Positions 3,001 to 9,000 of a DNA stretch of 13,270 bases are shown in pieces (position 1 is the first letter of the stretch; the number at the start of each line of letters is the position of its first letter). The position numbers are program-made. The DNA is from a virus. Its lineage: Duplodnaviria > Heunggongvirae > Uroviricota > Caudoviricetes. The stretch is taken from the IMG/VR virus record IMGVR_UViG_2526164667_000024; one strand, 5' to 3'.

Positions 3001-6000
3001 TGGATGCGTTCGGTTGCACCAGTCGCGGTCAGGCCCACCGTGCCGGGCTGTGGGTGATAAAGACCGGACTGCTGGAAACGCAGACGGTGGATTTCACGCT
3101 CGGGTCACAGGGGCTGCGTCACACACCCGGTGACATTATTGAAATCTGTGATAACGACTATGCCGGGACCATGACCGGCGGACGTATCCTGTCCATCGAT
3201 GCCGCCAGCCGCACCCTGACACTGGACCGTGAGGTGACACTGCCGGAGACAGGTGCCGCCACGGTGAACCTGATTAACGGCAGCGGTAAGCCGGTGAGCG
3301 TGGCCATCACTGCACACCCCGCGCCGGACCGGATACAGGTCAGCACCCTGCCTGATGGTGTGGAGACATACGGTGTATGGGGACTCTCCCTGCCGTCACT
3401 GCGTCGTCGCCTGTTCCGCTGTGTCTCCATCCGGGAAAACACGGACGGCACCTTTGCCATCACGGCGGTGCAGCACGTACCGGAAAAGGAAGCCATCGTG
3501 GATAACGGGGCCAGCTTTGAGCCGCAGTCAGGCACCCTGAACAGCGTCATCCCTCCGGCAGTGCAGCACCTGACGGTGGAGGTGAGCGCAGCTGACGGTC
3601 AGTATCTGGCGCAGGCGAAATGGGACACGCCGAAGGTGGTGAAGGGCGTGAGCTTTATGCTTCGCCTGACCGTGGTCGCGGATGACGGCAGTGAGCGGCT
3701 GGTCAGCACGGCCCGGACGACGGAAACCACATACCGCTTCACGCAACTGGCGCCGGGGAACTACAGGCTGACAGTCCGGGCGGTAAATGCGTGGGGGCAG
3801 CAGGGCGATCCGGCGTCGGTATCGTTCCGGATTGCCGCACCGGCAGCGCCGTCACAGATTGAGCTGACACCGGGCTATTTTCAGATAACAGCGGTCCCGC
3901 GTCTTGCGGTGTATGACCCGACGGTACAGTTTGAGTTCTGGTTTTCGGAAACGCGGATTACCGATATCAGGCAGGTTGAAACCACAGCCCGCTACCTTGG
4001 CACGGGGCTGTACTGGATAGCCGCCAGTATCAATATCAAACCGGGCCATGATTATTACTTTTATATCCGCAGTGTGAACACCGTTGGCAAATCGGCATTT
4101 GTGGAGGCTGTTGGCCAGCCGAGTGATGATGCATCCGGCTATCTGGATTTTTTCAAAGGAGAGATAGGGAAAACCCATCTGGCTCAGGAGTTGTGGACTC
4201 AGATTGATAACGGTCAGCTTGCGCCTGACCTGGCGGAAATCAGAACGTCCATCACGGATGTCAGTAATGAAATCACGCAGACCGTCAATAAGAAACTGGA
4301 AGACCAGAGTGCAGCGATCCAGCAGATACAGAAGGTTCAGGTTGATACAAATAATAATCTGAACAGCATGTGGGCTGTGAAGCTGCAACAGATGAAGGAC
4401 GGACGCCTTTATATTGCGGGTATCGGTGCCGGTATTGAGAATACGCCAGCAGGAATGCAGAGTCAGGTGCTGCTGGCGGCAGACAGGATTGCGATGATTA
4501 ATCCTGCGAATGGCAACACAAAGCCGATGTTTGTTGGTCAGGGCGATCAGATATTCATGAACGACGTGTTCCTGAAACGCCTGACGGCTCCCACCATTAC
4601 CAGCGGCGGTAATCCTCCGGCATTTTCCCTGACACCGGACGGAAAGCTGACCGCTAAAAATGCAGATATCAGTGGCAGTGTGAATGCGAACGCCGGGACG
4701 CTCAACAATGTCACAATTAATGAGAACTGTCAGATTAAGGGGAAACTGTCAGCCAACCAGATTGAAGGCGATATAGTCAAAACAGTGGGTAAGGCTTTTC
4801 CGCGGGACTCCCGGGCACCGGAGCGGTGGCCATCAGGGACCATTACCGTCAGGGTTTATGACGATCAGCCGTTTGACCGGCAGATTGTTATTCCGGCGGT
4901 GGCATTCAGTGGCGCTAAGCATGAGAGAGAGCATACTGATATTTACTCCTCATGCCGTCTGATAGTGCGGAAAAACGGTGCTGAAATTTATAACCGTACC
5001 GCGCTGGATAATACGCTGATTTACAGTGGCGTTATTGATATGCCTGCCGGTCACGGTCACATGACGCTGGAGTTTTCGGTATCAGCATGGCTGGTGAATA
5101 ACTGGTATCCCACAGCAAGTATCAGCGATTTGCTGGTTGTGGTGATGAAGAAAGCCACCGCAGGCATCAGTATCAGCTGAATTTTATAACCCATATACGG
5201 GCGCCAGAAATGGCGCCTTTTTTATTGCAGAAAAGCGAGAGGTAATTATGCGTAAACTTTATGCCGCCATTTTGTCCGCAGCCATTTGTCTGGCCGTATC
5301 CGGTGCGCCTGCATGGGCGTCTGAACATCAGTCCACGCTGAGCGCGGGGTATCTTCATGTCTCGACGAACGTTCCTGGCAGCGATGAACTGAACGGGATT
5401 AACGTGAAATACCGTTATGAGTTTACGGACACTCTGGGAATGGTGACGTCATTCAGCTATGCAGGAGACAAGAATCGCCAGCTGACCCGTTACAGCGATA
5501 CCCGCTGGCATGAAGATTCCGTGCGTAACCGCTGGTTCAGCGTGATGGCGGGGCCGTCTGTGCGCGTGAATGAATTGTTCAGCGCGTATGCGATGGCGGG
5601 TGTGTCTTACAGCCGTGTGTCGACTTTCTCCGGAGATTATCTGCAGGTGACCGACAACAAGGGGAAAACGCATGATGTGCTGACCGGAAGTGATGACGGT
5701 CGCCACAGCAACACGTCTCTGGCGTGGGGAGCTGGCGTGCAGTTTAACCCGACCGAATCCGTGGCCATTGATATTGCTTATGAAGGCTCCGGCAGTGGCG
5801 ACTGGCGCACTGACGGTTTCATCGTGGGTGTCGGTTATAAGTTCTGATTAGCCAGGTAACACAGTGTTATGACAGCCCGCCGGTTCAGGCGGGCTTTTTT
5901 GTGGGGTGAATATGGCAGTAAAGATTTCAGGTGTACTGAAAGACGGCACAGGAAAACCGGTAGAGAACTGCACCATTCAACTGAAAGCCAGACGGACCAG

Positions 6001-9000
6001 CAGCACGGTGGTGGTGAACACGGTGGCCTCTGAAAATCCGGATGAAGCCGGTCGTTACAGCATGGACGTTGAGTACGGTCAGTACAGCGTCATTCTGTTG
6101 GTGGAAGGATTCCCGCCGTCACATGCCGGGACCATCACCGTGTATGAAGATTCTCAACCCGGTACGCTGAATGATTTTCTCGGTGCCATGTCGGAGGATG
6201 ACGTCCGGCCGGAGGCACTGCGCCGTTTTGAACTGATGGTGGAAGAGGTGGCGCGTCACGCTGAGGAGGCGAAGAAGAATGCCGGAGAGGCGGAGACGTC
6301 AGCGAGGAATGCCGGCATATCAGCCAGTCAGGCAGAAGAGAGCGCTGCAAATGCTGACACTTCAGCAGGGGAGGCATCGGAGTCAGCCCGGCAGGCGGCA
6401 GAAAGTGCAGCCTCAGCAAAGCAGTCAGAGGATGCGTCCTCGTCCTCGGCTTCTGCGGCCGCTCAAAAAGCCAGTGAGTCATCACAAAGTGCAGCAGAAG
6501 CTGAATTGTCAAGAAAGACGGCAGAAAGTGCAGCCGGTAATGCAGCCAGGGATGCAACGACCGCAACAGAAAAAGCCCGGGAGTCAGCAGAAAGCGCACA
6601 GTCAGCGGAACAAAGCAGGATAGCGGCGGAAGAGGCCGTAAACCGAATCCCCACCGTGGTGGGGCCTCCCGGGCCAAAGGGGGAACCGGGGCCCGCGGGT
6701 CCTCAGGGGCCGAAGGGTGATAAGGGAGAGCGTGGTGACACCGGTCCTGTCGGGGCAACCGGTGAACGGGGACCGGCAGGTGATGCTGGTCCGGCAGGCC
6801 CGCAGGGGCCGAAAGGCGACAGGGGAGAGCGGGGAGAGACCGGTCTGACGGGAAATGCAGGTCCACAGGGTCCAAAGGGAGATACCGGTGCGGCAGGCCC
6901 GGCAGGCCCACAGGGACCGAAAGGAGAAACAGGTGCGGCTGGCCCGGTGGGGGCAACCGGACCTCAGGGACCGAAGGGCGACCCGGGGGAGACACAAATA
7001 CGGTTCCGTCTGGGGCCGGGAAACATTATTGAGACAAACAGCAATGGCTGGTTCCCGGATACAGATGGCGCACTCATCACCGGACTGACCTTTCTTGACC
7101 CCAAAGATGCCACACGGGTTCAGGGTTTTTTTCAGCATTTGCAGGTCAGGTTTGGTGACGGGCCGTGGCAGGATGTCAAGGGGCTGGATGAAGTGGGCAG
7201 TGATACAGGCAGAACAGGAGAATGACATGAATATACTAAAAAAACTTATGCAGCGTCTGTGTGGTTGCGGAAAGCATGATGGCCGTGAACACGTGCAGTC
7301 GCTTACAGCACAACTGCGACTGGGGCCGGCAGACATCCTGGAGTCAGATGAGAATGGCATTATTCCGGAGCAGGACAGGGTAATCACACAGGTGGTGATA
7401 CTGGATACAGATAAAAAGCTGATACAGTGTGTGGTAAGACCGCTGCAAATCCTGCGTGCTGACGGGACGTGGGAAAATATTGGCGGGATGAAGTAACCCG
7501 ACAGCTTCACAAAACCGGAGTCCGGCTCCGGTTTTTGTTGTCATGTCATGGTGATGTTTGTTAAGAAAGTAAAGATTGATTCATTTTGAAGGTTGAAATG
7601 TATGCTATCACCATCTTCTGTAAATTTGGGGTGTTCATGGAATTCTTTAACCAGAAACCTGACTTCTCCTGACAGTCGTATTTTATCCTCTGTAAGGGAT
7701 GCAGCTGCTAGCTCGGATAATGGGGCGCAAGTAAAGGTGGGCAACAGAACATATCGTGTTGTTGTCACTGATAATAAGTTTTGCGTTACAAGAGAAAGTC
7801 ATAGTGGTTGCTTTACTAATCTGTTGCACAGGCTGGGATGGCCTAAGGGAGAGATTAGCAGGAAAATTGAGGTGATGCTGAATTCATCGCCAGTGAATAG
7901 GGCTATGGAAAGAGGTGCTGTTCATTCGAATAGACCTGATTTACCTCCTGTTGATTATGCACCGCCAGAGTTACCGAGTGTGGACTATAACAGCTTGCCT
8001 GTGCCTGGTAATGTTATTGGCAAAGGGGGTAACGCTGTAGTATATGAAGATGCTGAGGATGCAACAAAAGTCCTGAAGATGTTTACTACATCTCAAAGCA
8101 ATGAAGAGGTAACAAACGAAGTTCGTTGCTTCAACCAATATTATGGTGCCGGGAGTGCAGAAAAAATATATGGCGATAATGGCGATATTATTGGTATTAG
8201 AATGGATAAAATAAATGGAGAATCGCTTTTAAATATTTCGTCCTTGCCGGCACAGGCTGAGCATGCCATTTATGATATGTTTGACAGGCTTGAGCAAAAA
8301 GGAATTCTTTTTATCGATACAACAGAGACAAATGTCTTATATGATCGCACGAGAAATGAATTTAATCCAATAGATATATCATCTTATAATATTTCTGAAC
8401 GTTCATGGAGTGAAAATCAAATAATGCAATCTTATCATGGAGGAAAGCAAGATCTTATTAGTGTGGTATTAAGTAAAATTTAGTAATTTTATCCAGTGTA
8501 GTGGATTTGTTGCATGGATGGAGTTGGTAAAAAGTGGTGTGGCTGGCAATCCAGGCCGCGTCACAGAAATGGACAATGCCGCTGAGAGACTGGCGAATGG
8601 CATACAGGCACCAGAAAAATTTCAGACATGACATAATGCCCATGCCAGAAGTTCTTTTTGCACCTCGCCTGTATTTATAGATAAATATAGAGTGAATGAA
8701 TGAGATATGAAAGACATTACCCTTCCCCCCCGACGTCCGCGTCCTGTCTGACAGGGGCCATATCTGTAAATACTGAAGCTGTATTATCTCCCATGCAACA
8801 CACTTCAGCCTTACATGTAAGAGATTTTGCTTCCCTGTGCTCACAGAACCTCAAAGCTAATGTATTGCTAAATAGTGATGACCACGAAGTACCTATACAT
8901 CAGAAAAATCCTGCTGCAATAATGCAAAATATCGACTCTAACATCAAACAGATGGCAACAGACTGGGGGATGTCGATTGAGGAGGTTGAGGTTATTATAG

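Follow-up and report, generated by a model that had tools for sequence, protein, structure and literature searches.

The window analysed here is a stretch of 13,270 nucleotides from a tailed virus (Duplodnaviria; Heunggongvirae; Uroviricota; Caudoviricetes), deposited as IMG/VR record IMGVR_UViG_2526164667_000024. A gene at 5912–7225 encodes a tail fibre with a long collagen-like domain. This fibre is an ordinary copy of EPclA (enterohaemorrhagic Escherichia coli prophage collagen-like protein A), a real and already characterised collagen-like side tail fibre of lambda-like prophages in pathogenic E. coli, exemplified by ECs2717 of prophage Sp14 in E. coli O157:H7 Sakai (Ghosh et al. 2012, PMC3368898). 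The gene very probably encodes a homotrimer that serves a long-tailed, lambda-like prophage as its side tail fibre. Polymorphism in the length of the collagen domain was already tabulated in 2012, and what is new here is a map of deletion junctions onto GPQGPKG repeats. The second addition is evidence for purifying selection on a linked, 89-residue paralogue of the C-terminal fibre domain (PfC).

The open reading frame (ORF) runs on the plus strand, as do all features below unless stated otherwise, from an ATG at 5912 to a stop codon at 7223–7225, and its 437-residue product was assigned to PHROG 366/3279 (tail fibre). Three Pfam families mark the protein: phage_tail_N (PF08400), Collagen (PF01391) and Phage_fiber_C (PF06820). 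The first of these (PfN) covers residues 1–133 (5912–6310; E 3e-69). Within it, residues 1–93 (5912–6190) form the tail-attachment or collar domain, which in a phmmer search was identical at 86 of 93 positions to the N-terminal domain of Ur-lambda Stf (PDB 9e7m chain Ta; E 4e-53), so that only seven differences in 93 residues (92% identity) separate it from a solved collar structure. The next 117 residues (134–250; 6311–6661) make up the PCoil segment, which is rich in Ala (32%), Ser (21%) and Glu (14%); its coiled-coil state is suggested here by composition, and its DNA contains a 27-nucleotide (nt) repeat family, D1. The collagen domain (Col) follows as one unbroken Gly-X-Y run of 37 triplets, or 111 residues (251–361; 6662–6994), by a regular-expression count. 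The C-terminal 76 residues (6995–7222) hold the 64-residue PfC knob (residues 363–426; PF06820, E 5e-35), the only Pfam domain after the collagen.

A preliminary description by a model, made from the DNA alone, had recognised this layout: a lambda-Stf-like N-terminus, an Ala/Ser/Glu-rich low-complexity segment, about 36 perfect triplets at 6662–6991 and about 75 further residues. Each element was recovered, with the collagen run one triplet longer than described. The same description held that the large distal region of lambda Stf is absent or replaced, and we agree. After PfN, the Pfam search of the fibre gave only Collagen and PF06820, with no match to Phage_fiber_2 (PF03406) or any other distal-fibre domain. 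No tfa gene was found directly downstream. The ORF there codes for a PF06820 paralogue and is succeeded by nleH and cif, and in the best-matching relative (L001) tfa is represented only by a pseudogene fragment annotated further downstream. Coiled coil, collagen and PfC thus stand in place of the Stf distal part. While that interpretation is supported overall, it did not include the EPclA family identity, the characterisation published in 2012, or the nature of the small downstream ORF as a second copy of the C-terminal domain.

Several lines of evidence place the fibre within the EPclA family. EPclA is a 437-residue protein with a 116-residue PCoil and a 111-residue Col, and occurs in most lambdoid prophages of O157:H7 strains Sakai and EDL933 (PMC3368898). 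The fibre shares with it the total length, the domain lengths, the domain order PfN-PCoil-Col-PfC and the prophage context. All features of the type are present, namely PF08400, an Ala/Ser-rich PCoil, a single uninterrupted collagen, PF06820 and a location in a prophage tail module. Moreover, the primers with which Ghosh et al. cloned EPclA match 5912–5938 and 7196–7222 without a mismatch.

The genomic setting agrees with this assignment. Lambda-type tail genes lie upstream, K (135–878), I (776–1456), J (1656–5180) and lom (5248–5847), and downstream of the fibre follow the 89-residue ORF, a gene for an NleH-like kinase, and cif. The order K, I, J, lom, fibre, PfC ORF is likewise annotated in L001. 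The closest complete genome is that of E. coli PS1Thumoskin9, with 99.6% identity over the fibre pair and a shared gene order, where the prophage ends adjoining ybhB-bioA. From the gene order and this match, we conclude that the gene encodes the side tail fibre of an effector-carrying prophage of the lambda-like type.

The physical properties of the family have been established on recombinant EPclA, which forms a trimer with the shape of a hinged dumbbell ∼55–62 nm long (PMC3368898). Its collagen is a true triple helix with a melting temperature of 42 °C, its Ala/Ser-rich segment forms a trimeric coiled coil with a melting point near 50–52 °C, and its PfC trimerises independently as a trimerisation knob (PMC3368898). 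By analogy, trimer, triple helix and trimerising PfC should all hold for the fibre in the window, which is near-identical to the recombinant protein. In Ur-lambda, twelve copies of the collar domain ring the gpV/gpM junction, three linked to each of the four trimeric side fibres (PMC12617516), and the collar domain of the present fibre would dock onto the tail in a comparable geometry. The trimeric coiled coil and the 37-triplet triple helix would together form a hinged stalk, the collagen part of which would measure ∼32 nm at 0.286 nm per residue. At its end, a small, β-rich PfC knob would nucleate the trimer and set its register. This knob is presumed to be the point of contact with the cell surface and to bind a receptor, and would take the place of both the large gp37-like distal part of lambda Stf and the Tfa chaperone.

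An alternative is that the protein is a host-directed bacterial collagen-like adhesin of the Scl1/Scl2, Lcl or BclA type that travels as prophage cargo and is exposed on the surface of E. coli. The collagen region does give weak matches to the NCBIfam models for Lcl and Scl, the gene neighbours the type III effector cargo nleH and cif, and Ghosh et al. leave a role for E. coli itself open (PMC3368898). However, these matches cover the Gly-X-Y part only and score far under the cut-offs (84 bits against 500, and 78 against 325). The fibre translation contains no signal peptide, hydrophobic N-terminus, LPXTG motif or other anchor, its N-terminus is that of a virion collar protein, and the gene lies inside the tail operon, straight after J and lom. 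We therefore regard an adhesin as extremely improbable and retain the side tail fibre.

PfC belongs to a very narrow family: a search of 1.84 billion representatives gave only 48 matches, nearly all E. coli-like. No solved structure related to PfC or to the small ORF was found in the PDB. AlphaFold2 monomer models, built on an alignment of 17 sequences, were β-rich for both but of low confidence, with predicted local distance difference test (pLDDT) scores of 50.6 for PfC and 52.6 for the small ORF, values too low for a fold search. The distant matches of PfC are Big_7 immunoglobulin-like repeat proteins with a common 'QIRVGDGPW.DV' motif (hhalign probability 40%), which is at most a hint that PfC may be a small β-sandwich.

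The preliminary description also held that the collagen block is built from near-repeated DNA units, which could let recombination or slippage change fibre length. Repeats were indeed found. One family, D2, comprises five 23-nt copies (6698–6720, 6797–6819, 6860–6882, 6905–6927 and 6959–6981) that encode GPQGPKGD with 78–87% identity, and their span, 6698–6981, contains the main deletion junctions. There is in addition one 67-nt pair, spaced 99 nt apart with 76% identity, and Tandem Repeats Finder reported a 45-nt unit in 2.0 copies (84% identity) and a perfect 9-nt tandem, CGGCAGGCC, in 2.1 copies at 6891–6909. In the alignment, the 9-nt unit occurs once in one homologue (L026), twice in the window and three times in two others (L010 and L019). 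The block is nevertheless less repetitive than the description implied, as the longest exact repeat within it is 11 nt.

Fibre length varies widely among homologues, again in line with the preliminary description, and there is no invariant length. We parsed 120 cluster representatives retrieved with the fibre protein. Those keeping both PfN and PfC have 4, 5, 8, 14–16, 19–21, 25, 26, 32 or 34–37 triplets, and alleles on viral contigs have 27, 30, 36 or 38, giving an overall range of 4 to 38. Each short allele equals the 37-triplet sequence minus one clean, in-frame internal deletion, and ∼20 distinct deletion classes were distinguished. The commonest junction falls inside GPQ-GPK, which occurs five times (triplets 5, 16, 23, 28 and 34), and others lie in GPV-GAT or GPK. 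At the DNA level, deletions of 90, 99, 162, 198 and 261 nt were seen, with breakpoints that are ambiguous over 2–11 nt of shared sequence. Triplet numbers of 19 and of 26 were each reached through two different deletions, so the events are independent. The 2012 paper had listed collagen lengths of 63, 78, 81, 111, 114 and 144 residues, and Sakai carries coexisting copies of 437 and 407 residues (PMC3368898).

Stalk length thus evolves by in-frame deletions or duplications between exact direct repeats of 9–11 nt in the collagen-coding DNA, and the simplest cause would be replication slippage or short-homology recombination. A stronger version makes the block a programmed contingency locus, that is, a high-frequency, reversible length switch tuning the reach of the fibre within a population. 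Many independent in-frame length alleles, a perfect 9-nt tandem in one, two or three units and copies of different length within a single genome would all be expected of such a switch. Established contingency loci contain long tandem tracts without imperfections, however, and here the exact repeats are short and the larger units only 76–87% identical. Most alleles are, besides, deletions from the 37-triplet form and irreversible once a unit is lost, and frameshifted and truncated alleles exist. A contingency locus is accordingly very unlikely in our judgement. Because exact homology is limited to 9–11 nt, we view the length changes as occasional slippage at short homologies and not as a programmed switch of high frequency; this rate we infer from the repeats.

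The coiled coil also varies in length, as the collagen run begins at residue 188, 210, 224, 244, 251 or 264 in full-length homologues. The differences are not all multiples of seven residues (e.g. −41 and −27), which contradicts the rule stated in the 2012 paper. The reading frame of the fibre is under purifying selection, with ratios of nonsynonymous to synonymous polymorphism (pN/pS) of 0.10 in the collagen and 0.10–0.25 across PfN, Col and PfC. Two antisense ORFs on the minus strand (6135–6995 and 6602–7510; 286 and 302 residues) overlie the collagen block; a stop-poor repeat with 68% GC most likely produced them incidentally, the plus frame being the one under purifying selection.

Directly downstream, an 89-residue ORF (7227–7496; PHROG 576) starts with an ATG one nucleotide past the fibre stop codon and is preceded by GGAG. 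Its residues 28–89 form a second PF06820 domain (E 2e-34), 35% identical to the PfC of the fibre. Where the fibre of a relative ends in PfC, the 1-nt spacing is nearly always kept, and the ORF is intact in 24 of 27 parsed loci. It also occurs 3' of the EPclB fibre of a short-tailed phage (L030), is absent after fibres with other C-termini, and is found with exactly the same 89-residue sequence on at least 996 contigs. Pairwise pN/pS among 20 distinct alleles was 0.37 for the first 25 codons, against 0.08 for the PfC part, and from the low value we argue that the ORF is a translated, constrained protein.

A different role has been proposed for its Sp5 homologue, ORF68, which was reported to be non-essential and was interpreted as a reservoir of sequences from which the fibre could vary (PMC5155283). 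The 89-residue ORF might likewise be a silent reservoir for tip swapping, or else an alternative C-terminus reached by frameshifting. It does carry a fibre-tip domain, and alleles with a 1-nt deletion in a T7 run (7126–7132) fuse the fibre to it. Both variants are unlikely, given the strong constraint on the PfC part of the ORF, its own ATG and GGAG at a conserved distance from the fibre stop, a divergence from the fibre PfC that is too great for ready recombination, and a T run and open overlapping frame that are not conserved. The selection signal accords more readily with a protein role, possibly that of a cap, adaptor or assembly factor, than with a reservoir, and argues for the small ORF as a real protein worth testing.

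The T7 run lies within the PfC coding region. In two 494-residue proteins (P0007 and P0009), a 1-nt deletion in it joins fibre residues 1–407 via a 30-residue linker to the small ORF. Programmed frameshifting or transcriptional slippage was considered at this site and rejected on the lack of conservation of the run and the overlapping +1 frame, and the deletions are probably mutations or sequencing errors. The two proteins were also considered as single-chain proxies for a fibre tip paired with the small ORF; they are unsuitable, being frameshift products in which half of PfC is lost. Residues 11–16 of the small ORF form an LCGCGK motif (7257–7274), which is conserved even in a Citrobacter rodentium homologue and might bind metal or form disulphides in an oligomer. 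A lipoprotein reading of LCGC was rejected, because the motif is not preceded by a hydrophobic signal region and, in the Citrobacter homologue, starts after only four residues.

Two hairpins were noted around the fibre pair. A putative, terminator-like hairpin from a consensus scan lies between lom and the fibre gene (5874–5895). A second hairpin, CCGGAG-TCCGG-CTCCGG followed by a T run, lies 3' of the small ORF (7511–7539); it was missed by the terminator scan and read directly, and as judged from its sequence likely marks the end of the tail operon.

Type III effector cargo follows the fibre module immediately (7593–9554), consisting of Cif and the NleH-like kinase, which has an OspG_kinase domain. 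This position is an exchangeable effector slot, taken in other relatives by NleG, a peptidase M91 effector, a SopA-like protein or EspF. The window is mosaic with respect to L001: its fibre-effector part (5142–10488) is 99.2% identical, and the matched K-I-J stretches (23–1335, 1740–4197 and 4520–4741) are only ∼79–90% identical. This drop in identity places a recombination junction near the 3' end of J. An IS3-family insertion (10489–11819) is absent from L001. On the minus strand it carries orfA (11363–11773) and orfB (10500–11405), with the Pfam domains HTH_Tnp_1 and rve, and it sits just upstream of an NleG-like effector gene (11782–12384).

J itself is split by an in-frame amber codon, TAG at 2523–2525 (…NNPA*CLWDM…), into 1656–2525 and 2538–5180; in the closest relative it is intact and 1137 residues long. 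On its own, the prophage may be tail-defective. The present copy of the fibre could then be an unused relic of a defective prophage, with its ORF kept intact through youth or through gene conversion from sister prophages. The IS3-family element further downstream and the frameshifted fibre and small-ORF alleles of other strains would fit such decay. On the other hand, neither the fibre nor the small ORF is disrupted here, both are 99.2–99.6% identical to those of a relative with intact J, and pN/pS is well below 1 across the family. A relic is possible though rather unlikely, and it would concern this copy only, the identity of the gene being unaffected.

Some points weigh against the reading of the gene as an EPclA-type side tail fibre with a receptor-binding knob and a stalk of evolving length. 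We know of no receptor or ligand of PfC, and its monomer pLDDT is too low to establish a fold. With the amber codon in J, this locus by itself may not provide a tail on which the fibre can assemble. As for the length changes, efficient recombination of the RecA type would need longer and less diverged internal repeats, and the mechanism is deduced solely from the positions of the junctions. A phi24B preprint (2026) reports a lack of BamA recognition by the related lateral fibres of phage lambda_2B8, and likewise has no confident model for the PfC domain.

The fibre gene matches 379 phage records, mostly of Shiga toxin (Stx)-converting phages. Among 5,426 complete E. coli genomes, 693 contain the complete pair of fibre and small ORF, and up to 17 places in one genome match at least part of the pair. 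EPclA-type fibres are candidate determinants of the E. coli strains in which prophages that carry effectors or Shiga toxin can establish lysogeny. Taken by itself, the present copy has little significance beyond its correct annotation, and neither of the two additions changes the understanding of the family, although the junction map shows in simple form how stalk length diversifies. A more ambitious synthesis would make the stalk an evolvable ruler, its 4–38 triplets (∼3–33 nm) selected to the thickness of the host O-antigen or capsule, the small PfC paralogue a partner of the tip, and the whole a portable module. Taken jointly, these proposals are unlikely to hold. If they did, the 89-residue paralogue would be a separate structural partner of the tip, acting as a cap or adaptor or else as a tfa-like assembly factor, and a 'collagen-PfC plus mini-PfC' module would be common to long-tailed and short-tailed Stx-type phages.

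Comparison with known systems places the fibre as follows. Streptococcal Scl1/Scl2 and Legionella Lcl share with it a prokaryotic Gly-X-Y triple helix without hydroxyproline and a globular trimerisation domain at one end, but they are secreted and anchored to the cell. In simple-sequence contingency loci the defining feature is a long perfect tandem tract; the best tandems in the collagen DNA are the 9-nt and 45-nt units described above. Lambda Stf shares the collar and the position after J and lom, and presumably the trimeric state and an accessory role in adsorption. The distal part of lambda Stf has Phage_fiber_2 repeats and the gene tfa follows, whereas beyond about residue 133 the fibre in the window consists of coiled coil, collagen and PfC, and its downstream gene is a PfC paralogue. 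Lambda Stf binds OmpC, and its long distal part is gp37-like (PMC12617516).

The EPclB or gp61 lateral fibres of short-tailed Stx phages (933W, Sp5 ORF67 and phi24B) have collagen repeats, a PfC tip and, likewise 1 nt downstream, the 89-residue ORF (L030; Sp5 ORF68). They differ in a podovirus-type N-terminal attachment domain and in two or three collagen blocks with a Pf2 repeat or a coiled coil between them. Closest is EPclA itself. The exact allele in the window is not in the protein collection searched and its nearest DNA match is 99.6% identical, and it resides in an nleH/cif/espJ-type effector prophage adjoining ybhB-bioA rather than in an O157 Sakai prophage. With no substantial difference between the two, the fibre is EPclA in another prophage.

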